From IMG/VR virus record IMGVR_UViG_3300046333_000090: 64,000 nt of DNA. One strand, given 5' to 3'. The notes beneath the pieces were generated by a model, which made no database searches, was not told the DNA's origin, and saw only the letters and a list, made by a program, of their open reading frames with translations. This DNA is from a virus. Positions 5,406 through 33,760 of this stretch are shown piece after piece. Positions within the stretch are counted from its first letter, which is position 1; each line of letters opens with the position of its first letter. Made by a program: the position numbers and the translations under genes.

Positions 5406-5419
5406 TTAAATTTAATAAA

Positions 5420-6895: not shown

Positions 6896-6952
6896 TGACA
6901 AATAATTAAAATTTGTGTTATAATAGGAATGTTGTCATTCCTATTATTTTTT

Positions 6953-7156
6953 ATGGATAAAAATAAGAAATACTATTACACTTATATCATTCGACACAAA
7001 AATGGGCAATATTATGTAGGCAGAAGGACTTCTAAAGTAGAACCACAATTAGATTCGTACATGGGATCTGGCGTGTGGGTAACTGCAATTAAAGATAGGG
7101 ACTCTATTGAAAAATATATAATTGCTGAGTACAATTATGCTATAAGAACATCATAA
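6953..7156 (+). pseudogene. Truncated GIY-YIG (Seg-like) homing endonuclease
   Basis: YYYTY...YYVGRR...DSYMGSG motif, stop after ~67 aa; paralogue of 34741 and 44722. Confidence 0.7.
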
Positions 7157-7164
7157 CACAGATA

Positions 7165-8868
7165 TCAAATAAATGGGAAAATCTGCACCACCTCAGCAAA
7201 CCAATTATTTATTTCGTTAGAACCTATTTCTTCGTAGCTATATTGAGTATTCGCATCAATCCAAAAAGATGTTAAAGTTTTCATAGAATAATATACTATT
7301 TCACTTCCTACATATTCATAATTTCTAATTTCATTAGAACCACTAGTGGTAAAGGTTACATTAAATTTGTTCAATTGTAAATAACCAGAACTCATGAATT
7401 CACTAGTGTCAACAACATTAATGACTCTTTGACCAATTAGCAAATCGGTAGTCATCGTAGTAATGGCAGGAGTGGGGTATTCATAATTACCACCAATATC
7501 GTTAACTAATTTTATTTTTTCTGCACCAAAGCTGTATTTTGTAGAAATATCGATCTGATTTTGGATGTCGCGCAAATTAGTAACATTAGACGAACCATAT
7601 GGTTCGATATCGTAGTCTAATACATGAGTAGTAGTTTCATAAACTACATCATTACCAGCAAATAATACATTAGTGGTAGTGTTATTAGTATATCCTACAA
7701 AATTGACATAATTATTGGCATCTTTATTGTATCTTATAGATGGAGGTGCAGAATATGTAATATCATCAGGTACTTGTGGATCTATATTTGGAGTGACAGT
7801 AGTGGTATAGTTATAAGTATGTAACAGCCAGCCATCAATGACACGAGAATTAAGAGTAGTAGCAGGAGGGTTAGTGATAGGAATTGGTGAATAGAACCTA
7901 TTAAATTTAATAGTTATTGCCCCAAAACTAGGAGAAACATAAGTAAAATCGTTATTTTTGGGGGTAATGTTACTAACGCCGAAACCAACAATATTAGTTT
8001 TGATGGGGATATCCAGCCAAGAAGTCACTACTATAGGATTATCTATATTACTGATACCATCTACAGGACTATCATTTTTGACAAATGTTGCACCATTGAG
8101 ATCTGCAATAGATGAGATGTGACTATTAGCAGTAGATAATATACTATTAGCAGTAGATAATCTGTTATTTGGGGTGGAGATGGGGACAATTTGCGAATTA
8201 TCCACATATTTGGTATTATTTTGTTCAGTATAGGGATTTGGCAATTTTAGATCATAATTACTAAAATTACTCACCGAATCTGAATTTGTAGGTAAATTTG
8301 GTGTAAATTTGGCATAATACGATATATTTTTATAATCTGTGGAATATTTACCAACTACTCCAGCACGATCTAATATTCCTTTTCCAGCTAATATTATGAC
8401 TTGAATTCCATTAACTGTGATAACCTGATTGACAGTAAAAGTAGCAGTGCCAGTATATTCAAAATATGAATATTTGTCAAACAAATTAACCACTTTTGTA
8501 ATAATTCCATTATTAAATGTATCACCCAATTTTAGTAAGTTTTTATTAGACCTTGGGTTTATAATGTAGTCAAATATGACTGCATTAGTAGTCATATCTG
8601 CATAATAAATGGTAGCATTAGGATTAGGTATTACAGATATAGCAGTAGCAACTAATTGAATAGTGCCTTGTAAATCTAATGTATAGTTATCTACGTTTTC
8701 TGGGGTAGATTCTGTTCGAGTATCTGCTTTATTAGCCGTGGACAGATTAAGAGTTAATTGATTTGATGGGATGACGAAAACATGGGCAAATGTGGTGTCG
8801 TCAGTATAAAATATGGGTAGGGGTGGGTTAATTGTTAAAGTTTTTTTGTAACTATTCTGGAGCGTCAT
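7165..8868 (-). CDS. Hypothetical virion structural protein
   Basis: 567-aa Thr/Asn-rich ORF directly downstream of gp25. Confidence 0.55.
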   Translation of the reverse strand: MTLQNSYKKTLTINPPLPIFYTDDTTFAHVFVIPSNQLTLNLSTANKADTRTESTPENVDNYTLDLQGTIQLVATAISVIPNPNATIYYADMTTNAVIFDYIINPRSNKNLLKLGDTFNNGIITKVVNLFDKYSYFEYTGTATFTVNQVITVNGIQVIILAGKGILDRAGVVGKYSTDYKNISYYAKFTPNLPTNSDSVSNFSNYDLKLPNPYTEQNNTKYVDNSQIVPISTPNNRLSTANSILSTANSHISSIADLNGATFVKNDSPVDGISNIDNPIVVTSWLDIPIKTNIVGFGVSNITPKNNDFTYVSPSFGAITIKFNRFYSPIPITNPPATTLNSRVIDGWLLHTYNYTTTVTPNIDPQVPDDITYSAPPSIRYNKDANNYVNFVGYTNNTTTNVLFAGNDVVYETTTHVLDYDIEPYGSSNVTNLRDIQNQIDISTKYSFGAEKIKLVNDIGGNYEYPTPAITTMTTDLLIGQRVINVVDTSEFMSSGYLQLNKFNVTFTTSGSNEIRNYEYVGSEIVYYSMKTLTSFWIDANTQYSYEEIGSNEINNWFAEVVQIFPFI

Positions 8869-8874
8869 GTCTGT

Positions 8875-9243
8875 TTATCTATCTCTCACTAAGTTTACAG
8901 TGAATGAATCTGTTTCTTCCAGTTGTTTAATAGTGTATTCTAGATAAACAGATAATGTAATATTATCATCTTCTAAAATAACTTCTATTTTTTCTATAAT
9001 AACACGATTCTCCCATAACGTCAAGGAGGTTCTGATCTCTTCAAGTATTTCGTTCCCAAGATTGTTGTCTGCAACTTCAAATAAATATTTTGATAGTGAT
9101 GTACCGTAATAAGGTTGGAAAATTGCACTACCTCTTTCGGTGAGTATAATATTTTTTACTGATGCTTTTACGGCTGCTTTTGTATTTAAGATTGTGATAT
9201 CGTGACTATTAGTTTGGCTGAATGATAAATCCAAGTCTGGCAT
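8875..9243 (-). CDS. gp25: Baseplate wedge gp25 (GPW/gp25 family)
   Basis: DLDLSF...AVKASVKNIILTERG...FQPYYG...LFE...WENRV. Confidence 0.9.
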   Translation of the reverse strand: MPDLDLSFSQTNSHDITILNTKAAVKASVKNIILTERGSAIFQPYYGTSLSKYLFEVADNNLGNEILEEIRTSLTLWENRVIIEKIEVILEDDNITLSVYLEYTIKQLEETDSFTVNLVRDR

Positions 9244-9283
9244 AATTTTTATGTTTTGATACTAATAGTCATATTTAGAGTTT

Positions 9284-10012
9284 CTATGCGGTGTAGGGCA
9301 TTCTAGACCCCTCTGGGAGCATAATAGGTTGTTCCCAAGATGCTTGATTTTCTAAATGTGCTTCAATTAATTGGTCTAGTTTTATCTGATGTTTTGGTGA
9401 GAATTGGATAGTATGATCTGGCAACCAATTAGGAGTTTCTTTGAGGTATCGTTCTGGCAATACTAAACCTGATTTGATGCCGAACTGATAGTGAATATTT
9501 TGAAGGTAATTTATTGATTGTGAACCAAAACTTATTCTCTCACCATTTACTCTTGGCATACGAATTTGTGTTTTATAGCTACTACTACCACCATTAGCAC
9601 ATTTTATACCAATAGGGAGTCCAGATGACTTCTTCATTAATGCTATATTAAACCATTGAGTGACTACTTCTAAATTAGATAATTTGTTATTACTAGGATC
9701 TCCGTCGATATGATTGATCACCCAATTATTATTAGTCTTCAATCCAACTATTAATTCATGAATTTTTACAGTTTGTCCATTTTTATATGTTAGAAATCTA
9801 CCTGTATTATTAGGATTAAAATTATATAGTTTTAATAGATCTACTTTATCAAGATCTATAGAATTAGTATATAATATACCAGTATTAGTATTGAGTACAT
9901 ACAGTTGGTCATAAGTAAAGAATTGATTATATATTAAATTGTAACCATTGTCTACATTATGATGAGGTTGATTGAACTGCCATAAATCCAGCGTTGTGTC
10001 GTAGTAAATCAT
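9284..10012 (-). CDS. HNH endonuclease, expanded family copy A (intact)
   Basis: INHIDGDPSNNKLSNLEVVT HNH motif; start set at MIYYD by alignment with paralogues. Confidence 0.85.
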   Translation of the reverse strand: MIYYDTTLDLWQFNQPHHNVDNGYNLIYNQFFTYDQLYVLNTNTGILYTNSIDLDKVDLLKLYNFNPNNTGRFLTYKNGQTVKIHELIVGLKTNNNWVINHIDGDPSNNKLSNLEVVTQWFNIALMKKSSGLPIGIKCANGGSSSYKTQIRMPRVNGERISFGSQSINYLQNIHYQFGIKSGLVLPERYLKETPNWLPDHTIQFSPKHQIKLDQLIEAHLENQASWEQPIMLPEGSRMPYTA

Positions 10013-12019: not shown

Positions 12020-12445
12020 TTATATATCAGATTTCTTATTTATAAATTTTAATAACTGCGCCGTACTTCCAACGAAAATACTATTATTAGTAGTATTGTT
12101 AGTATTGCCGCCATTCAATCCTTTGACCTTTTTGACTTCATTCGCCAATTTGATCAAAGATAAATTCAGTTCAACCGCCTCTCTCACCAACCCACCAGCG
12201 ACTTCATATGCGCGGGGAGTTTCTGATGCTTGGGCGACATCTATTGCATTGTCGATCAATCCGTTTAGTTTTTCTGAAAGAGCATGTAAATTGCTTCTGG
12301 TACGAACATAATCTACATCTAGATTAGTATTTATAGATGTGTCACCAATAGTAGTAGTAATAGGTTCGGCATCTACAACCTCTACTGGGGTAATAGACAC
12401 ATTTTCTATGTCCAATGATTCTGTAAGTTTATCAAATATTGACAT
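12020..12445 (-). CDS. gp16: Terminase small subunit gp16
   Basis: DYVRTRSNL...PRAYEVAG...NNSIFVGSTAQLLKFI, cyanophage gp16 signature. Confidence 0.9.
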   Translation of the reverse strand: MSIFDKLTESLDIENVSITPVEVVDAEPITTTIGDTSINTNLDVDYVRTRSNLHALSEKLNGLIDNAIDVAQASETPRAYEVAGGLVREAVELNLSLIKLANEVKKVKGLNGGNTNNTTNNSIFVGSTAQLLKFINKKSDI

Positions 12446-12635: not shown

Positions 12636-14951
12636 TCATACATCAATTATACTGATACTCACTGGGTCAGGAGTAGCTATTAAATAATTATTACCAGAAA
12701 CCAAAGTAAGAGTAACCGTCTTATTACCTTCTACAAAAGCACCAGTAATAGGAGTAATTATTAATTCTGTGGTAAGAATATTATTATTATCAAATGTAAT
12801 AACTGTGTCAACTAATTCATAATCAATACCATTAACCGCAATACCACCTAATATATAATTAACGCTCATAATACTAGTATTACCATCAGTCCTCGTAAAA
12901 GTAAATCCAGTGTTATTAGCATTAGCAACCACACTAACATCAGTAGGATCAATAATAGTCATAATAAATATGTCTGGTGTAAGTATTTCGTATCCACCTC
13001 CAGCAACTAATGTAATAGTAACTGTCTCAGAACCATCATTAAGCGCATCAAGAATAGGACGTATAGTTATAAAGGCATATTCAGAACCACGAGTAAATGT
13101 GACGGTATTATCCAGTAATTCATAATCAACACCATTAACCGCAGTACCACCTAATGTGTAATTAATAGTTAGAGGATTAGTATTGGAACCAGTTCTTTGT
13201 AATGTGAACGTCCCAATGAAGTCATCATTTTCCACAACAACAGGAAAATTAGCTGCATTCATAATCACACCAGCAAGAGAATCGTTAAGATTAATAGTAA
13301 CGGGATTAGGAGTAATAACGGTATATTCGCTACTGCCTAGCACAGTTAATTGAATATTTTCAGTTGGTTCTGCTACGTTATCAATAGTAGGATCAATTAT
13401 TAATTCAGCAGTGGCAGAACCAGCAGCAATTATGACAGAAGAATTAATTACTGTATAATCAACCCCATCAGTAGCAGTACCACCTAATGTGTAATTAATA
13501 GTTAAAGGATTAGTAGTGGAACCACTTCTTGTGAATGTATATGTAGCATTTACTACTTCATTTTCAACAATGCTCGTAGTACTAGCAACAGTGGTGATTT
13601 CAGGAAGTGCAGTAGTACTATCTAAAATATTAATACTTACCGGATCGGGAGTAATAGACACATATCCACTACCATCGACTAATGTAATAGAAACGGTTTC
13701 CGTTGCTTCGCTGTCTGCATCCACAATAGGAACGATTACCAAAGTAGAAGTAGCAGAATTGGCACCAAAAATAATAGAATTACCTACCGCAACATAATCT
13801 GCACTAGTGGTAGCAGTACCACCCAATATATAATTAACCGTCAATGGATTAGTAATATCGCCATTTCTTGTAAATGTATATACGGAATTGGTGTTTCCAT
13901 CTTCAGTGATATTAGTATTAGTCGCAAATAAACTAACATCAACGGGAATAGTATTACTTAATAAATTAATAATTACCGGATTAATACTAATAGAAATATA
14001 TCCGCTACCATTTATTAAATTTAATGATATTGTTTCTGTTTCCTCTTCAACATTATCAACAATAGGATTGATTACTAGTGTGGTGGTAGAAGAATTGGTA
14101 GCAAATATAGCTGAGGTACTAATTAATTCATAATCAACACCATTAACCGCAGTACCACCTAATGTGTAATTAATAGTTAGAGGATTAGCAGTGGAACCAC
14201 TTCTTGTGAATGTATATGTAGCATTTAATACTTCATTTTCAACAATAGTTGCCGTAGATGCAGTAACACTAACCTGAATATTACTTACCAACTCAAAATT
14301 AATAATATTTACAACAACTGGATTAACAGTATTTTTAATATATTCTGTATCATCAAGTAATTCTACAGAAATCGTTTCTGTAAATTCTACAATATTATCA
14401 GAAGTAGGATCGATTATCAGGGTGGCAGTATCAGATCCCGCAGGTATTATAATATTATCAGGTAATAACGCATAATCAAAACCATTAGTACAAGAACCGC
14501 TTAATATATAATTTACCACCAAGTCATAATTGTTATACCCAGTTCTAGTAAATGTATATACTAGATTGGTAGCACTATTTTCATCAGCAGTAGAAATAGT
14601 GGCAGATACACTGACCCCGACATCTTTAATTATATTTACTATAATTGGGGTAATAGTATCTACAGCATAATCAGCACTATCCACTAATGTTAAAGAAATA
14701 GCCTCATACAATTGAGTAAGATTAGTTGTGCGAGGATTAATAGTTAATGTAGTAGTATTAGATCCGGCGGGGATGACGATGGGAATTTTGGCAGAAATCG
14801 CACCAACATTATTACTATCAGTAAATCTATAAAAAATAGTCAATGGATTGTCTGTACTACCAGTTCTAATAAATGTAAATTCGATATAATGTATAGTATT
14901 TACCGAATTATAAACTCTAACTCTAGTATCATCAGAAATTAATATTGGCAT
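12636..14951 (-). CDS. Calx-beta repeat protein (~7 units), probable virion surface/adhesion protein
   Basis: Repeated YTFTRxG...LTxNYxLGGTAxxGxDY...IxPxxDxxxExxETxxxxL units. Confidence 0.8.
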   Translation of the reverse strand: MPILISDDTRVRVYNSVNTIHYIEFTFIRTGSTDNPLTIFYRFTDSNNVGAISAKIPIVIPAGSNTTTLTINPRTTNLTQLYEAISLTLVDSADYAVDTITPIIVNIIKDVGVSVSATISTADENSATNLVYTFTRTGYNNYDLVVNYILSGSCTNGFDYALLPDNIIIPAGSDTATLIIDPTSDNIVEFTETISVELLDDTEYIKNTVNPVVVNIINFELVSNIQVSVTASTATIVENEVLNATYTFTRSGSTANPLTINYTLGGTAVNGVDYELISTSAIFATNSSTTTLVINPIVDNVEEETETISLNLINGSGYISISINPVIINLLSNTIPVDVSLFATNTNITEDGNTNSVYTFTRNGDITNPLTVNYILGGTATTSADYVAVGNSIIFGANSATSTLVIVPIVDADSEATETVSITLVDGSGYVSITPDPVSINILDSTTALPEITTVASTTSIVENEVVNATYTFTRSGSTTNPLTINYTLGGTATDGVDYTVINSSVIIAAGSATAELIIDPTIDNVAEPTENIQLTVLGSSEYTVITPNPVTINLNDSLAGVIMNAANFPVVVENDDFIGTFTLQRTGSNTNPLTINYTLGGTAVNGVDYELLDNTVTFTRGSEYAFITIRPILDALNDGSETVTITLVAGGGYEILTPDIFIMTIIDPTDVSVVANANNTGFTFTRTDGNTSIMSVNYILGGIAVNGIDYELVDTVITFDNNNILTTELIITPITGAFVEGNKTVTLTLVSGNNYLIATPDPVSISIIDV

Positions 14952-14986: not shown

Positions 14987-15784
14987 CTAATTTATTGCCA
15001 ATGCGAATCCAAAATCACTAGTAGCAGTTAATAAATTATTATCTAATTGATTTATTGCCCCATCATTATTCAGATCGGTCTTAGCTACTGGCGTTACTAC
15101 TAATGTAGATGCAGGCACGACACTATTATTGACTGTATTTATATTTACGGTTACATGTTTAATCAACTTATTACTGTTATCAGTAATTGCTCCAAATATA
15201 TTACCACTAGCCGTAAATCTTAATGTATATATAATTTCTCTAGTGGAATCCATATAATTCCCCGCATAACTATCACTATAATTAATATTATTCAGGGTGA
15301 TTGGTACTTCTGTACTTGGGAATCCTGCCGTACTGACTATATTTATAGTGAATGTGGGAGTAAAGTATGGTAATATTTGTTCGACTATTTGTAGAACATC
15401 ATCATTAGAAATAGTGAGTATATTGACTTCAAAATCTAAATTGTAGGGCACTGGTACTAAAGTTGAGGACTTCCCATCAATACTGCAATTGTAGAGTTTG
15501 TTTAAGGTATTCAGTTTTCGTTCTGGATCGTATTGGAGCGAGATCATCTCAAAAACGATCTGAGGATACTTCATTCCAATCAAAGTAGTATCTTCCAGAT
15601 CTGGTACTTCTAGTGCCCTCGCTAGAAGGCGGTCTCTGTTCGAGTAGTGGATCGGGACTTTGATAGTTTGGATCAATGTGTTGGTCTTGTCATATCTTCG
15701 TAATTCAATGTTCGAGAATAGAGTGCCGAATGCTATAATAATTCGTTTAATTGATTCGTTATAAAACCATCTATTTCCTAACAT
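14987..15784 (-). CDS. gp15: Tail sheath stabiliser/completion protein gp15
   Basis: FYNESIKRIIIAFGTLFSNI...PVPYNLDF...QIVEQILPYFTP. Confidence 0.93.
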   Translation of the reverse strand: MLGNRWFYNESIKRIIIAFGTLFSNIELRRYDKTNTLIQTIKVPIHYSNRDRLLARALEVPDLEDTTLIGMKYPQIVFEMISLQYDPERKLNTLNKLYNCSIDGKSSTLVPVPYNLDFEVNILTISNDDVLQIVEQILPYFTPTFTINIVSTAGFPSTEVPITLNNINYSDSYAGNYMDSTREIIYTLRFTASGNIFGAITDNSNKLIKHVTVNINTVNNSVVPASTLVVTPVAKTDLNNDGAINQLDNNLLTATSDFGFALAIN

Positions 15785-20715: not shown

Positions 20716-21092
20716 GTTTGATATAATGCAGTAAATTCCGCACCATTCGCAGTAACCATAATGTCTTCATATATTTTTTGAGACAATTCTTCTAATTTAC
20801 CTTCTGGTAAGTCTTTCCAGACTTCATCTGGTTTTGTATTAACTACCAGATCTACTTTTTTAATTTGTGAATAATTATTAGCAGGATCGACTCCTCTCAA
20901 CTCACGAACTTTATGGTTCGGCATATAATGAAGTTGTTTGTTTAGTATCCCATATTCTTTAATCAAATCACAAATTTCTGGTACTGTAATACCTAACTGC
21001 ATAGCCATATCTGTACGACTACAACTTGTTTTTGCTAATAAAATTATTTCTTCTTTTGTTGGTTTCATGTTCTTAATTAAATATGTTTCCAA
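20691..21092 (-). CDS. Hypothetical protein, possible N-terminal HTH
   Basis: SRTDMAMQLGITVPEICDLIKEYGI resembles an HTH. Confidence 0.5.
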   Translation of the reverse strand: METYLIKNMKPTKEEIILLAKTSCSRTDMAMQLGITVPEICDLIKEYGILNKQLHYMPNHKVRELRGVDPANNYSQIKKVDLVVNTKPDEVWKDLPEGKLEELSQKIYEDIMVTANGAEFTALYQTCVGYVKL

Positions 21093-22117
21093 GTACGTCT
21101 TTCTACCATATCCGAAACAGTTTTTCTATCCAAACTATAACGTCTAGATAATTCTCCTTTACTTACTCCTTCACTCCATAATCTTCTTATTTCTAATACT
21201 TGTTCGTCAGATACTTTACTATTCTTGTGCGAACTTCCAACCATTGTACGAGATTTGATGACAACACCTGGGAATATTTTACGCTCCACATGTTTAAAGC
21301 ATTCTCGTCTCAATATTCTCCCTACTTGTACTTGACTGATTTGGAATTTCTCACCAATTTCTTTTTGTGTCCATTTATGTATATCATACAATTCTACAAT
21401 ATGGAGAATATCTTCTTCACTTAAATCAGAATTAGTTCGGAATTTCTCGGCTTTATCATTATTATTGTCTATTCTGGAACCTTCAAATAAATTATCTGGG
21501 TGAACATTTAATTTATTATCATCTTTATGACATAAACATATATCTGAAGTTAATACTACCTTTGTTAGTTGATATATGATTCTATGTATTTTATGAGATG
21601 ATGGTTTTCCATTTTTACATAAAGTGATTTTAGGATAGCCATTAGTGGTACTATACTTACACAACCAAGTATTTTCATCTATTACATCTATCTTACCTTC
21701 CAATTTTTCGATCATATCTTGCAAATATATATCACTCAATCCTAATTTATTTACAATTGGCACACCAAAAATATTAAAATTAATATCTAATTCAATATAT
21801 GCACGAACTACTCGCACAATATTATATTTATCAATTAATCGATTTATTGTAGATGGCGAACTATTAAGTAATTTAGCTGCTTCTGATTGATGCCAATTAC
21901 ATTCTTCCAATGCTTCCATCAACTGTTCTCGACTAATGCTGCTGAATTTAGGTTTTTGTAGAAATATTAGTTCCTTTTTATTAATCCCCAATCGTTTAAT
22001 GTGAAGATGAATACCAGTTACACTGTATCCTAATTGTTTAGCTATATCAGAACCACTATGTACAGTTTTAGCAATATCAAGCAATTCTTTTTTCGTTAAA
22101 GTTATTTTATTAGCCAT
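21077..22117 (-). CDS. HNH homing endonuclease with multiple HTH domains
   Basis: HKIHRIIY...LCHKDDNKLNVHPDNLFEGSRIDNNND plus N- and C-terminal HTHs; directly downstream of the TerL IntN-bearing gene. Confidence 0.85.
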   Translation of the reverse strand: MANKITLTKKELLDIAKTVHSGSDIAKQLGYSVTGIHLHIKRLGINKKELIFLQKPKFSSISREQLMEALEECNWHQSEAAKLLNSSPSTINRLIDKYNIVRVVRAYIELDINFNIFGVPIVNKLGLSDIYLQDMIEKLEGKIDVIDENTWLCKYSTTNGYPKITLCKNGKPSSHKIHRIIYQLTKVVLTSDICLCHKDDNKLNVHPDNLFEGSRIDNNNDKAEKFRTNSDLSEEDILHIVELYDIHKWTQKEIGEKFQISQVQVGRILRRECFKHVERKIFPGVVIKSRTMVGSSHKNSKVSDEQVLEIRRLWSEGVSKGELSRRYSLDRKTVSDMVERRTWKHI

Positions 22118-22157
22118 CTATACATCTTAATTCAATAAATTAATCATAACATCCACA

Positions 22158-22319
22158 TCATTCTTTGTCAAGTACTATTTCTGAATCAATATCTATGCAC
22201 TCTTGCTTCTGCTCTAATATGTTCTGTTCTTTTAATAAATTGTATAATTCTCCTAATTGTATGTCTCTCTCAACCCCCTCTAGATCGATGATACGAACAA
22301 TACTACAAGATGAAAGCGA
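22158..22319 (-). other. Split-intein N-fragment 2 (short, Ser1; 53 aa including an acidic tail)
   Basis: EQEFE|SLSSCSIVRIIDLEGVERDIQLGELYNLL; same site and pattern as the AceL/GOS TerL short IntN. Confidence 0.82.
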
Positions 22320-24569
22320 CTCAAACTCCTGCTCGAATTGTTTAGCACTCGTATTCGCGATGGTCATTCGTTTAAATTCCGCATCTCTTCCTGGAATCAT
22401 ATCCCATGTAATCTCTACTGGCACATACTCATTCTTACCATTCTTTGCATCAACAAAAATACGATAAAATAAGTTTAGCCCACGGGGGGTTTGTTCACCA
22501 ACAAATCCATTATAGATAACGGAATGACACCAAGGATCGTTAGGAACATTATCTAGAGAAAAATCATATAACTGTTCGATGTGGTCGTCATTAATCCGAC
22601 GAATTTTAGTCCACAACAAATCCGGTCTAACATTCAATTCAACAAATTCGCTAACACTACTATTAATTACAGATTGAATGATTGGTAATTTTTTAAGAGC
22701 ATTTTGTCGATTCATGTGTACATATTTGTGTTGTCCCTCCCCATTAAAAGCAAAATATTGTTTAATATATTTCTTTTGTGTTTCTAATGGGAGATGTTGT
22801 TTAATGAATGGAATAAAAAATGGAATAGAATCACTCTGTTTACGAAATTTTCTGATATTAGTCTGATAGCAATTCCATTGTTGTTTGTGAGGATGTTTAA
22901 AATTAATTATTTCAAAAAATTCTGGGGTGTAGCAATTTGGTATCTTCAGCAAAGTGCGACGAGAGTATCTCATTTTTCTTCTCATATGCCAATAATATCT
23001 TCGTTGTTCATATAACCCCTTTTTGATAGAATTAACCACACCAATATTCAATAATAATAGGTGTATTTGTTCCAATAGGTCTTCATTAGTATTAGTGATG
23101 TATATATCACCATAATTGTTATTTTTTTTACGATGATTCACTAGTGCCATACTATCGAAGCATCCTTGGAGAAAGGTAACAGTATTAATTTTAGACCACC
23201 GAAGGGGAATATCAGTTAGACCATTTCCAAAAGTAGTATACTTATCAGGAGAAGTGTACTTCAATTTTTTTAATACACTGGCTAGTTCAATTGAATCTAT
23301 AATGTAATTAACCCCATCAAACTCATAATCCAGTCCAATATTTTTTATGGCATCATCATAACAATCCTCATCCAAATATCCACTATCCGTAATACGAAGA
23401 GTCAGAGTAATAAATCTGCCATCAGTTATATAACCACTACCAGCATATATACCAAAAAAATAAGCAAATTCTGGAGTAACTATTGGGAATTTTTCAGAAT
23501 CTAATGTATCCAAATTACCAAATATTTGAGTATTATATCTGACTGCAATAAAATCATTAGGTTCCAACTCAGATGCCCTAAACCAACCATATTTGCCTTG
23601 CTTACAGGCATAAAGTTTATGAGTAGTCGAACACTCCAATTCAGTAAAATTAGTATATATTTTTCTAACGTTTGATTTACCGTTATTACACATAACAGTA
23701 CCTTTATTATTTCCCTTCATACCCACTAATTCATATGGTGGGATATGATATGATTTTTTCTCTAATTGATCTTTAATAAAAGTTTCGATGCGAGTATAAC
23801 CTTTAGTGGTGAGAATATATGTATTTTTCACTACACAAGAAGTGATAATTAATTTAGATTCTTTAGATGACGAAATAGTAGGATATACCGAGGTCATAAA
23901 CTCTTCTTGGATACCATTAGGGACGAATGCGAATTCGTCGCAAAATACGATATTGAAGGTAGACCCGCGAACAGAGGTGGCACTGGTGGATGAGGCTAAT
24001 ATTTGAGAACCATTTTCAAGTTCGATATGTGTTTTATTCCATTGTATTACTCCTTGTTGTAACCACATTGGCAAATTTTCATATGCCATTTGTAGTCTAC
24101 CTAATAGTTCCATAGATAGATCTCTTTTGTTTGCTAATATTGCAATATTTTGATGAGGTTTAAATAGTGCGACCCAGAGGGCATAGCAAATCATCGTAGT
24201 CGAGTTATGTGAAACTATATTATTGGTGATGTAGAGGTCATCTTCTACATTCAATAAATCATACATATTTTCAATATTATCTGATTCATTAATAGCAAGA
24301 ATTATATCAGGATACAAATATCCACCATCATCCATTACCAATATCTCGTCCCCAACTATTAAATCTACTAGTTTAGTTTCTTCATACTCATCTTTATCAT
24401 TCAATCTAATTAGAATATGATCGTCAGCACAAGATAGATGATATTGGGTGGTGTATACGTTCCAAACATTATATTTAATAGTTTGCCCTACTCCAGCAAA
24501 ATCTTTATATCCAGTAGGCGTTAGTACTTGCCAATCATTAGTATATTTTTCTTGTACAAACTCAGCCAT
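22158..24569 (-). CDS. gp17: Large terminase gp17, middle fragment: IntC - ATPase part - cis intein - extein - IntN
   Basis: Exteins STTMICYALW...ILANK...LENGS...VRG...FCDEFAFVP...IITS|TPRGLNLFY...FEQEFE; intein motifs at both ends and internally. Confidence 0.92.
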   Translation of the reverse strand: MAEFVQEKYTNDWQVLTPTGYKDFAGVGQTIKYNVWNVYTTQYHLSCADDHILIRLNDKDEYEETKLVDLIVGDEILVMDDGGYLYPDIILAINESDNIENMYDLLNVEDDLYITNNIVSHNSTTMICYALWVALFKPHQNIAILANKRDLSMELLGRLQMAYENLPMWLQQGVIQWNKTHIELENGSQILASSTSATSVRGSTFNIVFCDEFAFVPNGIQEEFMTSVYPTISSSKESKLIITSCVVKNTYILTTKGYTRIETFIKDQLEKKSYHIPPYELVGMKGNNKGTVMCNNGKSNVRKIYTNFTELECSTTHKLYACKQGKYGWFRASELEPNDFIAVRYNTQIFGNLDTLDSEKFPIVTPEFAYFFGIYAGSGYITDGRFITLTLRITDSGYLDEDCYDDAIKNIGLDYEFDGVNYIIDSIELASVLKKLKYTSPDKYTTFGNGLTDIPLRWSKINTVTFLQGCFDSMALVNHRKKNNNYGDIYITNTNEDLLEQIHLLLLNIGVVNSIKKGLYEQRRYYWHMRRKMRYSRRTLLKIPNCYTPEFFEIINFKHPHKQQWNCYQTNIRKFRKQSDSIPFFIPFIKQHLPLETQKKYIKQYFAFNGEGQHKYVHMNRQNALKKLPIIQSVINSSVSEFVELNVRPDLLWTKIRRINDDHIEQLYDFSLDNVPNDPWCHSVIYNGFVGEQTPRGLNLFYRIFVDAKNGKNEYVPVEITWDMIPGRDAEFKRMTIANTSAKQFEQEFESLSSCSIVRIIDLEGVERDIQLGELYNLLKEQNILEQKQECIDIDSEIVLDKE
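22491..23837 (-). other. Contiguous intein (449 aa) in TerL: Cys1, C-terminal Gln, Thr+1, degenerate LAGLIDADG domain
   Basis: IITS|CVVKNTYILT...TTHKL...LYDFSL...GFVGEQ|TPRG. Confidence 0.85.
24204..24569 (-). other. Split-intein C-fragment 1 (122 aa, ends SHN, Ser+1) at the TerL Walker A site
   Basis: VLTPTGYKDFAGV...CADDH...MYDLLNVEDDLYITNNIVSHN|STT. Confidence 0.88.
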
Positions 24570-24629
24570 TTTATTAAATTTAATAATTCTATACTGATAT
24601 TTATTGGTGTGTTTTTAATTATTAAATTT

Positions 24630-24668
24630 AATAATGACCTCCTAAAATCAATTAGGAGGTCATTATTT
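24630..24668. terminator. Hairpin terminator between HNH copy C and the TerL middle fragment
   Basis: AATAATGACCTCCTAA-N6-TTAGGAGGTCATTATT. Confidence 0.75.
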
Positions 24669-24734
24669 TATGATTTGATACTAGTAGTCATATTTGTGAT
24701 TTTTATGCTCTGAGAGGGGCATCCTAGACCCCTC

Positions 24735-25433
24735 TCAGAGCATAATAGGTTTATCCCAAGTAGCTTGATTTTCTAGATGCGTTTCAATAAGTTGTTCTAG
24801 TTTTGATTGATGTTCTGCTGTGAATACAATATTAGGATCTGGCAACCAATTAGGTACTTCTTGTAAGTATCTTTCGGGAGTGACTAATCCAGATTTTACT
24901 CCAAACTGATAATGCAAGTTTTGTAAGTAATTGAGATCTTTATAACAAAAATTTATATGTTTACCATTTACTCTTGGCATAGCAATTTGTGTTATATAGC
25001 TACCATTATTATATGTTGCACCAATAGGGAGTCCAGATGACTTCTTTTGTATTAATATGTTAAACCATTGAGTAACTACTTCTAAATTAGAACGTTTATT
25101 ATTACTAGGATCGCCATCTATATGATTAATTACCCAATTAGCATTAGTTTTATATCCATATACTAACTCATGAATTCTTACAGTTTGTCCATCTTTTTTT
25201 GTACTAAATCTACCTCCACTATTATGATACCAATTATATAGTTTTAACAATTCTACTTTATCAAGATCTATTGTGTTAGTATATATTTTACCAGATTTAG
25301 TATTCAGTACATGTAACGTTTCATCTACAAATAGTTGATTGTAAGTAAGTTTACCTGCATATAGTTTATTGAGATTATGGTGAGGTTGATCGAATTGATA
25401 GAAATTGAGTATTTTGTCGCAGAAATGTATCAT
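24735..25433 (-). CDS. HNH endonuclease, expanded family copy C (intact)
   Basis: MIHFCD...QFDQPHHN; INHIDGDPSNNKRSNLEVVT. Confidence 0.88.
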   Translation of the reverse strand: MIHFCDKILNFYQFDQPHHNLNKLYAGKLTYNQLFVDETLHVLNTKSGKIYTNTIDLDKVELLKLYNWYHNSGGRFSTKKDGQTVRIHELVYGYKTNANWVINHIDGDPSNNKRSNLEVVTQWFNILIQKKSSGLPIGATYNNGSYITQIAMPRVNGKHINFCYKDLNYLQNLHYQFGVKSGLVTPERYLQEVPNWLPDPNIVFTAEHQSKLEQLIETHLENQATWDKPIML

Positions 25434-25435
25434 TT

Positions 25436-25807
25436 TTAATAATAATATATAGAATATATCTCAATCTGACGCATCCGATTTAGAAAATAGGTTTTTTCAT
25501 TTTCAGTTTCAACTATCGCAACCGACGCATAAAATTCAACACAATTCCCTAAGTCAATTCTTTCAACTTCTATATATTCTTTTAGTCCCGAACCAATTTT
25601 AAATATTTGATCTTTTAATATTATACCAGATTCACCATTAACACTGATATTAATAATTTTGATATATTTTTCGTTTAAATCTTCAACAATTCCAGAGTAT
25701 CTTTGAGATCTATTTTTGTACTTAACTAAGTTGCCATTAATAATGTTCAATATATTTTTTCTCGATGTGTATTCTAATAATATAACATTATTGGTGAGAT
25801 ATGTCAA
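25436..25807 (-). CDS. Hypothetical protein
   Basis: 123-aa ORF; no TerL or intein motif. Confidence 0.5.
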   Translation of the reverse strand: MTYLTNNVILLEYTSRKNILNIINGNLVKYKNRSQRYSGIVEDLNEKYIKIINISVNGESGIILKDQIFKIGSGLKEYIEVERIDLGNCVEFYASVAIVETENEKTYFLNRMRQIEIYSIYYY

Positions 25808-25844
25808 GTATATCTAAATATCAATATAAAAATTCAGTTTTTAC

Positions 25845-27068
25845 ATGTTAAAATTACTTCCGTCATTACAGCAAAATATAGGAAATTTGGTAGAAACACC
25901 AGATGGTTTCGAGAAATTTATGGGAGTGCAGAAAATTTATAGAAATAAATATATAGAATTAGAATTCTTAGACGACAATAAATTAGTTTGCTCACTTAAT
26001 CATCCGATAAACACCACAGAAGGTATAATATTAGCTAAAGATCTCACTAAAACTATAGAAATAATTGGAAAAGTAAATAATACTTTTCTTAAAACAAAAA
26101 AAACTATAAGAAAAAAAATAGAATTATATGATATTGTTAATTCTGGCAAGAATCATTGGTATTATGCGAACGATATATTAAATAAAAACTGTAGCTTCAT
26201 AGGTTCATCGCTCACCCTTCTTAATGCCAATAAATTAGCAGCATTAACCCATAAAGAACCAATAGAAAGAAATGACAATATAGTTGTCTACGCAAAACCA
26301 AATCCTACGCATAGATATATGATTTGTGCAGACACCGCAGAAGGTGTTGAAAAGGATTATTCAGTAGCAATGGTGTTTGACATCACTACTGTACCATACA
26401 CCATAACAGCTATTTATAAAAACAATAATATTGCACCAATAGTATTCCCCAACATAATATTGAAATTGGCGAATGAATATAATAAAGCTTACGTTCTTGT
26501 AGAGTTAAACAGCATTGGATCACAAGTAGGAGATATTCTACATTACGATCTAGAATATAGCAACCTACTTATGACAGCCACCGTGGGACGAAACGGGTTA
26601 ATTCTAGGTCAAGGATTCGGTAATAAGTGCAAATTTGGATTACAAATTACTAAAACTACAAAACGACTAGGTTATAGTAACATGAAATCTTTGATTGAAG
26701 ATGATAAATTACTAATAGAAGATTTTGGTATTATTAGTGAATTATCAACATATGTAGAAAAAGGGGATTCTTATGCAGCAGATGATGGTAGTAATGATGA
26801 TCTAGTAGCTTGTATCGTATTATTTTCTTGGTGTGTTACCCAGCCGTATTTCAAAGAACTTACAGATTTAGACGTAGCAAAAGATATTCGGGAATTACAC
26901 AGACAAGAAATAGAAGACGACATGGCGGTATTAGGTGCTTTATTGATAAATGGAGAAGAATTAGAAGATGGTATTGTGGAAGAAGGTGGAGATCTGTGGT
27001 GGAATGCTAAGTTAACTGACAGTTATTATGAGTACGGGTACGAGGTGCCAGTTATTTATTACTTTTAA
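25845..27068 (+). CDS. gp17: Large terminase gp17, C-terminal fragment: IntC (25845-26189, 115 aa, ends NKN, Cys+1) plus nuclease domain
   Basis: VETPDGFEKFMGVQK...SLNHP...LYDIVN...DILNKN|CSFIGSSLTL; RuvC-like ADTAEG..DYS, VELN..G, NDDLV; late promoter CTAAATA at 25814. Confidence 0.92.
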   Translation: MLKLLPSLQQNIGNLVETPDGFEKFMGVQKIYRNKYIELEFLDDNKLVCSLNHPINTTEGIILAKDLTKTIEIIGKVNNTFLKTKKTIRKKIELYDIVNSGKNHWYYANDILNKNCSFIGSSLTLLNANKLAALTHKEPIERNDNIVVYAKPNPTHRYMICADTAEGVEKDYSVAMVFDITTVPYTITAIYKNNNIAPIVFPNIILKLANEYNKAYVLVELNSIGSQVGDILHYDLEYSNLLMTATVGRNGLILGQGFGNKCKFGLQITKTTKRLGYSNMKSLIEDDKLLIEDFGIISELSTYVEKGDSYAADDGSNDDLVACIVLFSWCVTQPYFKELTDLDVAKDIRELHRQEIEDDMAVLGALLINGEELEDGIVEEGGDLWWNAKLTDSYYEYGYEVPVIYYF

Positions 27069-27120
27069 TTGCTTACTATAATTATAGTTTTCGTGCGTTG
27101 TAGGGCATTTTAGCCATCTC

Positions 27121-27525
27121 TCAGAGTATAATTGGCTGCTCCCAAGTAGATTGATTCTCTAGATGTGCTTCAATTAATTGATCTAATTTTGTTTGATGTT
27201 TTGGTGAGCATTGTATGGTAGAATCGGGTAGCCAATTAGGAACTTCTCTGAGGTATCTTTCTGGAGTAACTAATCCTGACTTTACTGCAAAATGATAATG
27301 TATGTTTTGTAAGTAATTTATATATTTAGAACCAAAAGTCATAGCTTTACTATTTTTTCTTGGCATAGCAATATTTGTTAGATAACTACCGCCACTAACA
27401 ATTATTTATAGATCGTCTATAAATAATTGATTATATGTTAATTTTAATTTTTATTTTCCATTATCTACATTATGATTAGGCAGATTGAACTGATAGAGAT
27501 TTAATGTTTTGCAGAAGTGGATCAT
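27121..27525 (-). pseudogene. HNH family copy D, internally deleted (HNH core lost)
   Basis: MIHFCKTLNLYQFNLPNHN start and QNIHYHF...HLENQSTWEQPIIL end retained. Confidence 0.8.
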
Positions 27526-30202: not shown

Positions 30203-31423
30203 TCATTTGTAAGTTTTTATCCTTACTGGGTGTACTACTAAACCCTCTATCCCATTGCTGAACACGTTTGGGATTGCTTTTCTCATGATATTATAACTAC
30301 CATTTATGTCTGCATTAAATTTCAGACCACTCTTGGCTTTGTATATCCCTCGTTGCAGTCTTCTACCGCTGAACTGGCGTTTTACACCTGCACTGTAAGT
30401 AGGAATTGAATCTGCATCTAAGAAACTTGCTTTACTTGTATAACTCTCTTCTTGTTCGATAAATTTTATACCTACCAATTCACATTTGTAATGCAGTTTG
30501 GCTATCAAATCATTAAATGGTACTTGAACGAAGTTCTGGTTATTTTTACTCCCTATATTGATGTTTTGTTTCCATCCATTGTTTTTACCTACTACCAATG
30601 TGCCCACATCATTTTCTATCAATGTCCTTACAATAGTTGTACTAGCTTTATGTAAATAATCACTAATTTTGTTTCCTCTCTTATTGTAAAGCCTTCTGAT
30701 CCTCTTACTACTACCACCTTTCAAGATTGATTGTAGCTGCGCTAATCTCTTGTTGAAAAATTGGTTAATTGATTTTAGAGGATTCCCACTTAACAGCATT
30801 GGCTTAGTTCCAATTTTATTAAATGTAAGTGCAACCAAATTACTCAGTCCTAAATCTATAGCTGCTACGTTTGCTTGGTCTAATCTCAAATCAACAATTG
30901 ATTTTTCGTAAACTATTTCTACTACATAATGCTCCAATTTTGGCACAATTCTAACTTGATCGATTTTCTCATATGGGATATCTGTTTGAACAAATATATT
31001 GGTACCAGATGGATTAAGTAGTCCATCCTTGGTTAAGCTGCGCTTAGAAATAGCTTGATTAGAGTAAGAAGTTACATTTCTACCAGATTCAATTTTATGA
31101 TATTTTGGAATTTTTGGACACGCATTAAATTTAGATGGATTGCTTGTAAAAGATTTGATAGCCTGAAAGTAAGATTTCCAATTTTTATCAAGACCCATCA
31201 GGACATGTTGGGACACTTTCGCCGGAAGCGAAGTATAATCAATAGTACCCTGAACAAGCTTTAATATCTTGTAATAATTAAGATAACCAGTACCAGCAAA
31301 TATAGATTGTCTAATTATATAATTTGCATAGTTATATAAATTCTTAGATAAGAAACAAATAGAATCTAACTCATAATAAAATGGATGATTAGAGTAGAAC
31401 TTATGTTGTTGAGTTAGTTTCAT
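30203..31423 (-). CDS. tnpB: TnpB RNA-guided endonuclease (IS607 type)
   Basis: SKNLYNYANY, IDLGLSNL (RuvC-I), VVGKNNGWKQ, EESYTSK, NADINGSYNI. Confidence 0.92.
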   Translation of the reverse strand: MKLTQQHKFYSNHPFYYELDSICFLSKNLYNYANYIIRQSIFAGTGYLNYYKILKLVQGTIDYTSLPAKVSQHVLMGLDKNWKSYFQAIKSFTSNPSKFNACPKIPKYHKIESGRNVTSYSNQAISKRSLTKDGLLNPSGTNIFVQTDIPYEKIDQVRIVPKLEHYVVEIVYEKSIVDLRLDQANVAAIDLGLSNLVALTFNKIGTKPMLLSGNPLKSINQFFNKRLAQLQSILKGGSSKRIRRLYNKRGNKISDYLHKASTTIVRTLIENDVGTLVVGKNNGWKQNINIGSKNNQNFVQVPFNDLIAKLHYKCELVGIKFIEQEESYTSKASFLDADSIPTYSAGVKRQFSGRRLQRGIYKAKSGLKFNADINGSYNIMRKAIPNVFSNGIEGLVVHPVRIKTYK

Positions 31424-31979
31424 CAGAATTAATAATATTTACAATTTGACAAGATTTTCTAGTTCTTCTACGAATAGAATATAGTCTAGCACAGAAAGAA
31501 GTAATAATGCTAACAAAATCTTGCATAAGATCATCAGTACGTTCGGTACAAATATTAACCACATCAATAGATTTGCCTTGTTTAGATAGTAGAACATCTA
31601 GATAATTAAACCCAACTCTAGTAAGGCGATCTTTATGTTCTACAACTATGATATCATAGTTATCAGAATTAAGCAAGTCAATAAATTTACGTCTATGGTC
31701 ATTAACGCCAGAACCAACTTCTTTAATAATTTTAACAATAGAATAACCTTTTGATAAACAATAGGATTCTAAGCGTTCCACTTGAGTGTCCAGATTAGAT
31801 TTATTTTGAGAAGAAGAGACTCTGGTATATATAACTGCATTTTTAGTAGGAGTGGTAGGTGGATGAACAATAATAGTACCAGTAGGGAGTTGGGTGGCGG
31901 ATAGAGTGCCAGATTTCCACATACGCCAAGCAGTTTTGTAGGAAATACCAAGAGAAGAGGCGTAAGTAGATAACTTCAT
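31401..31979 (-). CDS. tnpA: IS607 TnpA serine recombinase
   Basis: N-terminal HTH; YTRVSS...LDTQ...EVGSG...EHKDRLTRVGF. Confidence 0.94.
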   Translation of the reverse strand: MKLSTYASSLGISYKTAWRMWKSGTLSATQLPTGTIIVHPPTTPTKNAVIYTRVSSSQNKSNLDTQVERLESYCLSKGYSIVKIIKEVGSGVNDHRRKFIDLLNSDNYDIIVVEHKDRLTRVGFNYLDVLLSKQGKSIDVVNICTERTDDLMQDFVSIITSFCARLYSIRRRTRKSCQIVNIINSDETNSTT

Positions 31980-32283: not shown

Positions 32284-32934
32284 ATGGCATTAAATATAAT
32301 GGACTTTCGGACACAATTACTACTTGGTGGCTTTAGAAGCAACTTGTTCAGAGTAGATCTGTCCTTCCCCTCCCAAATTGATTCATTAAAAGGAAATACT
32401 GGGGATAAACCAGCATCAGCAGCAACATTAAATACAGCAGCTAGTTTTTTGATTAAATCAGCACAAATACCTAGTATGGACATTGGAGTAATTCCTGTTC
32501 CATTTAGAGGAAGAGAATTAAAAGTAGCTGGTGACAGAAGTTTTGAGAATTTTTCCTGTACTGTAATTAATGATGGTGAATTTAGATTACGCAAAGGATT
32601 TGAGGCATGGTCTAGAGGCATCAATGCGTTGACAGAAAACGTATCAGAATTAGGATATTCTAATGGATCGGGTACAAACAAAATTAGTTATATTCAAGAT
32701 ATTACATTACATTTATTGAGTAGAGATAATGTTGCTCCAGAGAGAACACCAGCAAATGCTAGTTCATTTAGTTCTGCTACTGATAAGATTTTGAGAAGTT
32801 ATCGGTTATACGGTGCATGGGTATCCAGTTTATCTGGAATGGATCTTGGTTACGAACTCAATAACCAAATTTCGCAGTACAGTGTGACTTTTGCGTACCA
32901 GTACTTCGAGGTACTACCAAGTACTACAAATTAA
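32284..32934 (+). CDS. gp19: Tail tube protein gp19
   Basis: GGFRSNLFRV...VPFRGRELKVAGDRSFE...VINDGEF..RK.FE.W. Confidence 0.95.
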   Translation: MALNIMDFRTQLLLGGFRSNLFRVDLSFPSQIDSLKGNTGDKPASAATLNTAASFLIKSAQIPSMDIGVIPVPFRGRELKVAGDRSFENFSCTVINDGEFRLRKGFEAWSRGINALTENVSELGYSNGSGTNKISYIQDITLHLLSRDNVAPERTPANASSFSSATDKILRSYRLYGAWVSSLSGMDLGYELNNQISQYSVTFAYQYFEVLPSTTN

Positions 32935-32949
32935 TTATTAAATTTAATA

Positions 32950-32985
32950 AAGCCTTTCTAGATGACTCTAGAAAGGCTTATTTTT
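32950..32985 (+). terminator. Terminator after gp19
   Basis: AAGCCTTTCTAGA-N4-TCTAGAAAGGCTT followed by T-rich sequence. Confidence 0.75.
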
Positions 32986-33046
32986 ATATTCTGACACTAG
33001 TAGTCATTATTATAGTTTTCGTGCGTTGTGAGGCATCCTAGACCTC

Positions 33047-33760
33047 TCTCAGAGCAGAATAGGTTTACCCCATGTTGCTTGATTCTCTAGATGTGCTTCA
33101 ATTAATTGATCTAATTTTGTTTGATGTTCTGCTGTGAATACAATATTAGGATCTGGCAACCAATTAGGTACTTCTTGTAAGTATCTTTCTGGGGGACACT
33201 AAACCTGATTTGGTTGCAAATTGGTAATGAATATTTTGAAGGTAATTGAGATTTTTAGAACCAAAACTTATACTTTTTCCATTTACTTTTGGCATCCTGA
33301 TTTGTGTCACATAGCTACCAACATAATTAGTATATTGTAACCCAATAAATAAACCAGAAAACTTTTTCTTTATTGTTGTGTTGAACCATTGAGTCAATAG
33401 TTCTAGATTGGAACGTATATTATTACTAGCATTACTATCTAAATGATTAATTACATAATTTTCATTAGTCTTCGCTCCAAATACTAGTTGATGAATATAT
33501 GTATTAGCACTATCAGTTCTTGTCTTAAATCTACCACTACTATCAAGATTAAAATTATATTGTTTTAGAATATCTACTTTATCAAGATCTATAGAATTAG
33601 TATATATTGTACCAGATTTAATATTGAGTAGATGTAATTTGTCATGTAAAAATAATTGATTATATATTAATTTGTAATTACCATTATTTACATTATGGTG
33701 AGGAAGATCGAACTGCCATAATTTTAGTAATGAATCAAAGTGAATCATATTACTACTCAT
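33047..33760 (-). pseudogene. HNH family copy E, frameshifted near 33190
   Basis: INHLDSNASNNIRSNLE motif; the family C-terminus continues in another frame after LVSP. Confidence 0.8.

Follow-up and report, generated by a model that had tools for sequence, protein, structure and literature searches.

This report concerns the gene for the large terminase gp17 (TerL) in a stretch of DNA from an uncultured freshwater T4-like myovirus (IMG/VR record IMGVR_UViG_3300046333_000090; 64,000 nucleotides (nt), here called the window), in which the protein appears to be divided over three separate genes that carry the parts of two split inteins and one cis-splicing intein. The window has a G+C content of ~31% and encodes a gp43-type DNA polymerase, gp14, gp15, gp16, the gp18 sheath, tube and portal. 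DNA of this phage was found in 24 freshwater metagenome runs, and several independent Joint Genome Institute (JGI) and Logan assemblies carry the window DNA at 99.99-100% identity. Megablast with the terminase region returned no match among 50,697 phage records, and an exact 47-mer scan of IMG/VR found none. Of the phage genome, which measures at least 157 kb, ~69 kb were inspected, namely the window and 4.6 kb of contig L007, which is 100% identical to window positions 1-9237 and continues past the left edge.

The middle piece of the terminase is an open reading frame (ORF) of 803 amino acids (aa) on the minus strand (22158-24569; protein P0001). It begins with a 122-aa C-terminal split-intein fragment, IntC1 (24204-24569; residues 1-122), which ends ...IVSHN↓STT at the Walker A site, with Ser at position +1 (↓ marks a junction). 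The ATPase core of TerL follows (extein 2, 23838-24203; gp17 87-209), from the Walker A S/T through Walker B (FCDEFAF) to ...LIITS, and is followed by a 449-aa cis-splicing LAGLIDADG intein (22491-23837; residues 245-693). Beyond it lie gp17 210-266 (extein 3, 22320-22490; TPRG...QEFE) and a short N-terminal fragment of the second split intein, IntN2 (22161-22319), which starts with Ser1 (EQEFE↓SLSSCSIV...LGELYNLL) and has an acidic 23-aa tail. With the 550-aa gp17 of Prochlorococcus phage P-SSM4 (locus L001) as the reference, tblastn placed gp17 87-209 at 24212-23838 (minus strand, 62% identity, E 2e-46) and gp17 210-266 at 22490-22311 (minus strand, 45% identity), and Pfam recognised Terminase_6N, Intein_splicing and LAGLIDADG_3 in the ORF.

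The C piece (25845-27068, plus strand; 407 aa, P0002) is divergent from the middle piece. Its head is a 115-aa fragment, IntC2 (25845-26189; residues 1-115), ending ...ILNKN↓CSFIGS with Cys at position +1, and the remainder is the nuclease (RNaseH-like) domain (extein 4, 26190-27068; gp17 267-550; Pfam Terminase_6C). The tblastn match to gp17 267-550 runs from 26190 to 27044 on the plus strand (49% identity over 286 aa, E 3e-85), and the top matches of this extein among 2443 phage records are cyanomyovirus gp17. The C piece occupies the canonical gp17-gp18 position.

Residues 1-86 of gp17 had no tblastn match in the window. An earlier note, made from the letters of the window, had predicted that a third gene with the gp17 N-terminus, RQxGK and an N-terminal intein fragment would lie more than 20 kb away, and this gene was found on L007 at 1881-1460 (minus strand, as the middle piece). 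The position corresponds to -2700 to -3121 in window numbering, 2.7 kb past the left edge and ~27 kb from the middle piece. It has a perfect TATAAATA upstream and encodes the gp17 N-terminus in two frames: an upstream frame (M-A-R-K-K...R-F-V-V-V-K-Y-P) runs into a 59-nt insert, and a second frame reads (P)RQSGK, then a 30-aa fragment, IntN1, starting C-V-T-G-D-T, then a stop. The N-extein amounts to ~85 aa and ends in the Walker A RQSGK. When the exteins are joined in silico, as that note had proposed, the product is 561 aa long and aligns globally to P-SSM4 gp17 at 50% identity with zero gaps at the four joints KYP↓RQSGK, GK↓STT, ITS↓TPRG and EFE↓CSF; removal of the cis intein likewise leaves the gp17 alignment gap-free. 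The joined protein is colinear with a T4-type TerL over its full length and has Walker A (RQxGK-S/T), Walker B (DE), the S/T-T-P coupling motif and the RNaseH-like nuclease. Among 5.8 billion clusters, the best full-length contiguous TerL is 53% identical to the nuclease extein.

Both C-terminal fragments resemble the atypical split inteins of terminases. In phmmer searches of the PDB, IntC1 matched CatC of the consensus atypical TerL intein (6DSL_B, E 4.6e-8), as did IntC2 (E 5e-11), which also matched the gp41-1 intein (6QAZ, E 3e-4); the two fragments are faintly similar to each other. IntN2 aligns end to end with CatN (6DSL_A, E 0.13), and because this alignment includes the EFE extein, intein 2 starts at EFE↓S, with Ser at position 1. 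IntN1 gave no match to the PDB, a 30-aa query being too short. Intein 2, whose joint maps to gp17 266↓267, has the EFE↓C site, the short IntN (block A only) and the long IntC (blocks B, F and G) of atypically split TerL inteins, and intein 1 combines HINT homology with a complementary IntN on a separate gene. The earlier note had described two atypically split inteins and one cis intein, with a 122-aa IntC and Walker A junction heading the middle ORF, an EFE↓S IntN at its tail and a 115-aa IntC heading a divergent plus-strand nuclease ORF at 25845, and each of these features reads as it claimed. Its comparison of the EFE site and short IntN to AceL-TerL and GOS-TerL is borne out by the CatN alignment and by the Ser1/Cys+1 pair and 115-aa IntC, which fit GOS-TerL (PMC11766414).

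The residues expected of such inteins are kept among relatives of the phage. For IntC1, block B His51 and the C-terminal S-H-N before S/T-T-T are invariant in seven relatives, and IntN1 of the relatives keeps S-G-K-C and the beta-strand pattern. The class-1 residues of intein 2 (Ser1, block B SLNH, terminal Asn and Cys+1) are conserved in the window and in relatives L011 and L012, and IntN2 is kept in proteins P0003-P0009, where position 1 is Ser or, in P0005 and P0006, Cys. When the window and the 4.6 kb upstream were scanned in all six frames with hidden Markov models, only the two IntC fragments and one IntN1 came up, and with no additional fragments the IntN-IntC pairings are unambiguous. 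The cis intein reads S↓CVVKNT...STTH...GFVGEQ↓TPRG, as expected of a cis-splicing LAGLIDADG intein, from Cys1 to a penultimate Glu and C-terminal Gln ahead of Thr+1. All relatives have the same cis intein at the S↓TP coupling-motif site, ending in HQ (7 of 10), HN or EQ; because most end in HQ, a C-terminal Gln is the norm of this family.

A complex model of IntC1 with the tail of the N piece gave an interaction score (ipSAE, interaction prediction score from aligned errors) of 0.89, versus 0.00 for the best of three controls; the ipSAE mark for this model is reached by 58 of 80 solved complexes and by 2 of 110 mismatched pairs. Three runs share at least 81% of contacts, the predicted local distance difference test (pLDDT) of the partner is at least 79, and Cys1 is placed in contact with block B and with the strands of blocks F and G. 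The predicted complex is thereby like a working split intein, the solved complex of this kind being 6DSL, and this likeness is not proof of binding. Ratios of nonsynonymous to synonymous substitution (dN/dS) between the window and its relative L044 (82% aa identity) were 0.15 (IntC1), 0.17 (IntN2) and ~0.10 (cis intein) for the intein parts, and the exteins gave 0.02-0.13 (0.02 for extein 2, which is 96% identical), values that are rough with dS close to saturation; the proportion of nonsynonymous differences (pN) is far below that of synonymous differences (pS) throughout. Compared with L011, IntC2 is 63% and the nuclease extein 62% identical to its homologue. These values point to purifying selection on the intein fragments.

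Net charge separates the two split inteins. Across relatives it is -8 to -23 for IntC1 (-18 in the window phage), +3 to +5 for IntC2 (+4 in the window phage), -1 to -6 for the first 30 residues of IntN2 and -1 to +3 for IntN1. Charges are complementary within the cognate pairs, and the intramolecular IntN2-IntC1 pair is repulsive. Since an IntC heads the middle piece and an IntN ends it, a cross-reaction of IntN2 with IntC1 would cyclise that piece, and the two split inteins are presumably kept orthogonal by sequence divergence and charge. What the analysis establishes is the anatomy, homology, conservation and layout of the pieces and the predicted IntN1-IntC1 pairing; trans-splicing activity, orthogonality and the way in which the gap of the N piece is decoded we infer.

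When 1.84 billion representatives were searched with a profile built from the N-piece tail, 170 clusters came up at E <=0.001. More than 100 of these are ungapped N pieces of ~120 aa (110-135 aa) that end in RQxGK↓C followed by a 30-aa IntN, and by these searches the Walker A (GK↓S/T) atypical split intein appears as a large family that is abundant in metagenomes. This search also found the IntN type at the GK↓ of other P-loop ATPases: six short ORFs from other metagenomes (P0134, P0135, P0151, P0152, P0199 and P0154) end in the same 30-aa IntN (C-V-x-G-D-T...I-x-N-K-x-T-G-E...), which cuts clamp-loader-like or AAA+ ATPases off at their Walker A GK (e.g. ...GPAGAGK↓C...). Because the same IntN stands at GK↓ in these ORFs, the lineage of split intein 1 would target the P-loops of several phage ATPases.

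The insert in the N piece (L007 1626-1568) is located just ahead of Walker A, five codons before IntN1. It forms a hairpin in two parts, in which an upper stem and an AUAAAC loop stand on a CCCC/GGGG basal stem, and there is a G-rich run a few bases before the site where reading would resume. Because the gap holds an in-frame stop, the N piece is made only if the gap is bypassed or removed. Homologous inserts of 61-65 nt are present in four more lineages (L011, L015, L016 and L045), and the five show compensatory changes in both stems, with minimum free energies of -27 to -30 kcal/mol (z -2.2 to -3.4). Read from upstream, the frame continues for 7 codons into the insert in each of the five lineages and then stops. 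The coding boundary of the insert varies (between P and R in L007 and L011, between R and Q in L045, and between Q and S in L015 and L016), so the hairpin boundary moves among relatives, with a constant distance from boundary to stem. The frames restored differ among the inserts, that of L015 being in frame with two stops, and the edge codons are matched in L007 (CCT/CCT) and L015 (CAG/CAA) and unmatched in L011, L016 and L045 if a canonical KxPRQSGK product is assumed. Both flanking frames are open, with pN < pS on either side; for SGK and IntN1 downstream of the gap, pN/pS is 0.36-0.76 in 10 of 10 pairwise comparisons, and no stop occurs in the five lineages. An Rfam scan of the N-piece region gave nothing near threshold. 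A 19-mer from the hairpin core has no further copy in the window, even with 3 mismatches, matches only the L011 contig in IMG/VR, and has 26 metagenome-contig matches, all of them in unrelated contexts, which shows that the hairpin is no dispersed repeat.

Two simple ways of reading across the gap were rejected. A -1 frameshift at T_TTT_TTG does not fit, as the -1 frame of L007 has a stop, the L015 insert keeps the frame and holds two stops, and L016 calls for +1; a separate start of the RQSGK-IntN1 frame would require an ATG, GTG or TTG, none of which is present in frame. By analogy to known bypassing, the gap is most likely decoded by a hairpin-mediated ribosomal hop, and RNA-level excision may be the alternative. 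The closest parallel is the 50-nt bypass of T4 gene 60 with its MobA cassette (bioRxiv 10.1101/2022.08.31.505936), which is also a structured insert in an essential split gene near homing-endonuclease genes, and a candidate bypass in the phiHau3 terminase (PMC10732093) offers a further precedent. The conserved RNA structure in the gap is shared with gene 60. The candidate bypass of the N piece differs in that it has no sequence similarity to gene 60, in none of the five lineages does the stop follow the take-off codon directly (it comes 7 codons later), the whole gap is taken up by one long hairpin, and matched codons occur in 2 of the 5 lineages. The hairpin sits where a homing endonuclease targeting Walker A DNA would cut, and by analogy to T4 mobA and gene 60 it may be an immunity insert. 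The decoding of this gap is the main uncertainty of the three-piece model.

The layout differs from that of a collinear fractured gene, as the earlier note had held, in that the C piece lies on the opposite strand and the N piece 27 kb away. The middle piece of IntC1, ATPase, cis intein and IntN2 recurs in P0003-P0007, at identities of 82, 63, 52 and 37% among others. In L011 (63% identity) the C piece (minus strand) is divergent from the middle piece (plus strand) and has gp18, tube and portal behind it on the same strand, and the N piece comes after gp14-gp15-gp16, ~7 kb downstream of the middle piece, giving the blocks gp14-gp15-gp16-17N, 17M and 17C-gp18-gp19-portal. The C and middle pieces are also divergent in L012 (37% identity), with three unrelated genes between them, and in L015 and L016 the N piece directly follows a gene in the gp16 position, behind gp14 and gp15. 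From the gene order in these four relatives, the canonical gp13-gp20 late block is broken exactly at the two split-intein sites, a synteny that supports the proposal of the earlier note that splitting allowed rearrangement. The window phage is shuffled further, with the N piece after gp13, and with gp16 (12020-12445) detached. Intermediate forms also occur: P0009 has an intact N-terminus and the EFE split only, and P0012 the Walker A split only. P0010 is contiguous (1331 aa) with a cis intein at GK↓ST, and P0005 and P0126 have an extra cis mini-intein at Walker B (...SFN↓C...VSN↓CVFCDEF...), for up to four inteins per TerL.

Possible misassembly at 24570-25845, which the earlier note had named as a way for its layout to fail, was checked against other assemblies, and these agree with the layout. 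Three JGI assemblies (L002 of 21 kb, L003 and L004) span the region at 99.99-100% identity, and Logan contigs of four further freshwater runs tile 22000-27200, with bridges at 23841-24836 and 25373-26183 that cover the starts of both pieces. Skip joints at 24592/24714 and 24875/25252 were discounted, as their sides are only 20-22 nt long and lie within the repeated HNH region. Misassembly of the opposite-strand layout is unlikely.

We assign a probability of about 0.8 to the reading that gp17/TerL is encoded as three separately transcribed and translated polypeptides joined by two split inteins, with a cis intein in addition. IntN1 would dock onto IntC1 and IntN2 onto IntC2, each pair folding into a HINT domain as the large IntC captures the short disordered IntN, as in Cat/AceL-TerL. 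Two class-1 trans-splicing reactions would then take place at GK↓ST (Cys1/Ser+1) and EFE↓CS (Ser1/Cys+1), and the cis intein would excise itself at ITS↓TP, presumably via Gln cyclisation, with the 561-aa gp17 as the end product. The middle piece would be spared cyclisation because the split inteins are diverged homologues with pairwise complementary charge. As to its history, two canonical fractured sites (extein-IntN, endonuclease gene, IntC-extein) would have arisen first; the pieces would next have become independent genes, and rearrangements would then have broken the late-gene block at the intein sites. In the fullest form of the account, TerL synthesis would involve four non-standard joins on three gene products, namely two orthogonal trans-splices, one cis-splice and the precise skipping of the conserved hairpin of 59-65 nt, the skip being either a new programmed-hopping family or RNA excision and the hairpin a possible immunity insert that travels with the split-intein cassette; this we put forward tentatively, at a little under even odds.

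Several observations weigh against the three-polypeptide reading, and some of them lend weight to an alternative. Absent penultimate His residues and Glu-Gln endings are tolerated in some inteins. Intein 2 has K, N or G in place of the penultimate His (NKN in the window) and the cis intein ends in Glu-Gln rather than His-Asn, either of which could slow splicing and would suit a non-covalent complex of the three polypeptides, in which the intein fragments are dimerisation modules without splicing chemistry; the strong IntN1-IntC1 association of the model would hold such fragments together equally well. We consider this improbable, since Cys1/Ser1, the +1 Ser/Thr or Cys, the block B His and the terminal Asn are kept down to 37% identity, the P-loop would most likely not survive a 152-aa HINT domain retained between GK and S/T in the Walker A loop, and the homologous GOS-TerL, AceL-TerL and Cat inteins at EFE↓C splice in vitro (PMC11766414). 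The N piece, split over two frames by a 59-nt hairpin with an in-frame stop between ...VVVKYP and (P)RQSGK-IntN1, poses another difficulty: the N-extein frame meets a stop after 7 codons of the insert, and no start codon opens the RQSGK-IntN1 frame, as would be expected if a disabling hairpin insertion had killed the gene and the phage were defective or used the middle and C pieces alone. Such a dead gene is very unlikely, given that the interrupted architecture is kept in five diverged lineages with compensatory stem changes, open flanking frames and pN < pS. Purifying selection on IntC1 would be senseless without a partner, the Walker A GK comes from the N piece alone, and DNA of this phage occurs in at least 24 freshwater runs.

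The ~69 kb inspected leave room for an intact terL on the rest of the ~157-kb contig, in which case that copy could do the work and the three pieces would be decaying relics of a second one. Two terL genes in one T4-like phage would be unusual, and the exteins (dN/dS 0.02-0.13) and intein fragments show the marks of purifying selection, even allowing for the roughness of ratios taken near saturation. The C piece lies in the canonical gp17-gp18 slot, the N piece of the relatives lies in the gp16-gp17 slot, and the protein collection holds no contiguous TerL above 53% identity, all of which makes a working second copy highly improbable. The repeated HNH gene between the middle and C pieces is multi-copy, short-read contigs fragment inside it (24836-25373), and loose ends occur at 24588-24637 and 24717, a pattern that a chimeric join producing the opposite-strand layout could leave. 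Identical sequence across the region in three independent JGI assemblies, the same divergent C/middle layout in L011 and L012 with other intervening genes and no such HNH gene, and piece boundaries that coincide with ORF starts and stops bearing intein fragments, not with contig joins, leave a very small chance of such an artefact. Exact TATAAATA occurs 26 times in the window versus 22 +/- 5 in shuffles and is not enriched, and since it is as common in shuffled sequence, the promoter-like motifs are weak evidence.

These motifs lie upstream of both pieces in the window. The T4 late-promoter-like motif AATAAATA at 24598-24605 (minus strand; 7/8 match in AT-rich DNA, weak) is 28 nt upstream of the ATG of the middle piece, and (TAT)CTAAATA at 25814-25820 (plus strand, weak) is 25 nt upstream of the ATG of the C piece; the claim that each piece has its own late-promoter motif thus holds as to their presence, and the motifs are no stronger than chance. 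The terminator and HNH gene that had been placed between these pieces were recovered: a terminator-like bidirectional hairpin with a 16-bp stem at 24630-24667, which separates the HNH gene from the promoter region of the middle piece, and a free-standing HNH homing-endonuclease gene at 24735-25433 (minus strand; Pfam HNH_3, phrog_99). A further HNH endonuclease with helix-turn-helix (HTH) domains lies directly downstream of IntN2 (21077-22117, minus strand; phrog_59 E 7.5e-31, Pfam HTH families, HNH_3 E 0.002 on the core), where a canonical fractured gene has its endonuclease. Directly downstream of the N piece is a 112-aa ORF (L007 1018-1356, minus strand; window -3563 to -3225) with a weak match to HNH endonucleases, whose end, ...IEIGEFFRDLS, almost equals that of IntN1 in L015, ...VEIGEFFRDLY, and looks like a duplicate IntN tail that an insertion left behind. 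Both IntN fragments are therefore followed on their own strand by a homing-endonuclease or endonuclease-like gene, which suggests two ancestral fractured-gene sites of the type described by Dassa (2009), with the IntC halves later moved.

The HNH gene beside the middle piece belongs to a family on the minus strand with 76-79% DNA identity that is scattered over the late region (24615-25394, 32931-33712 and 9245-9985, and a truncated remnant at 27078-27366 just past the C piece). Its summed depth is high, and in other runs the contigs are fragmented there and end or diverge, with loose ends, at 24588-24637 and 24717; this suggests that some genomes have the copy and others lack it, as would fit a mobile gene. 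Inversion between the HNH paralogs was rejected, since the copies are direct and not inverted repeats. An IS607-like pair (serine resolvase and TnpB/OrfB_IS605) lies at 30203-31979 (minus strand) between the sheath and tube genes, and a second, inverted TnpB copy, 98% identical, is found 31 kb off at the right end of the window (62831-64000, plus strand); inverted insertion sequence copies could drive inversions in this shuffled genome. In the L004 assembly, a 28-bp deletion (25655-25682) falls inside a 123-aa ORF (25436-25807) with no family match, which is probably dispensable or no gene. A 771-aa protein with three Calx-beta domains (12636-14951, minus strand) stands between gp15 (14987-15784) and the small terminase gp16 (12020-12445), an unusual place in a T4-like late block.

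Intein 2 shares with GOS-TerL, AceL-TerL and Cat (6DSL) the host protein, the EFE↓C site, the short IntN and an IntC of ~105-115 aa, and with GOS-TerL also the Ser1/Cys+1 pair (PMC11766414). The atypical architecture of these inteins recurs in split intein 1, their diverged homologue. The terminase described here differs in having two such inteins in one protein: intein 1 occupies the GK↓S/T of Walker A, IntN2 is extended by an acidic tail of ~23 aa, IntC2 has no penultimate His, and the partner genes lie apart and out of collinear order. The fractured genes of Dassa, London, Stoddard, Schueler-Furman and Pietrokovski (2009; PMC2677866) have their three ORFs in collinear order on the same strand, separated by a few tens of bases, and each gene is split once; they include a single terminase locus, with a 122-residue IntC. 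They have in common with the present case an essential phage enzyme cut by a split intein and a free-standing homing-endonuclease gene behind the half with the IntN, the one part of the pattern that is kept here, as an HNH or HNH-like gene after each IntN; the present case has two splits, a C piece on the opposite strand and an N piece 27 kb away, and is thus not on the same strand, collinear or adjacent. The complementary IntN and IntC charges match the charge-steering idea of the same study (PMC2677866). Engineered tandem trans-splicing likewise uses three fragments, two orthogonal split inteins and a middle segment of the form IntC-extein-IntN (PMC7090010, PMC7210297, PMC12707363); those systems are man-made, whereas this one would be natural, with orthogonality apparently provided by divergence and charge. 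A literature search found no paper on a natural protein needing two split inteins, and tandem trans-splicing as engineering only. The kind of intein 2 is already known (GOS-TerL type), and its combination with a second split intein in one protein, encoded in non-collinear pieces on both strands, appears to be new.

If it splices as proposed, this terminase would be a natural case of tandem trans-splicing, natural split inteins being known otherwise with a single split in each protein and mostly in collinear order. For protein engineering, it would offer an atypical split-intein pair with 30-aa IntNs that can be synthesised as peptides, using Cys1/Ser+1 and Ser1/Cys+1, respectively; the two are presumably orthogonal, as they coexist on one IntC-extein-IntN polypeptide, and would be useful for three-segment labelling. 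The gap in the N piece, if decoded by hopping, would represent a new natural bypass family. For genome evolution in these phages, the split of an essential gene at the protein level would let its parts move and invert, with the intein sites becoming breakpoints of the late block.

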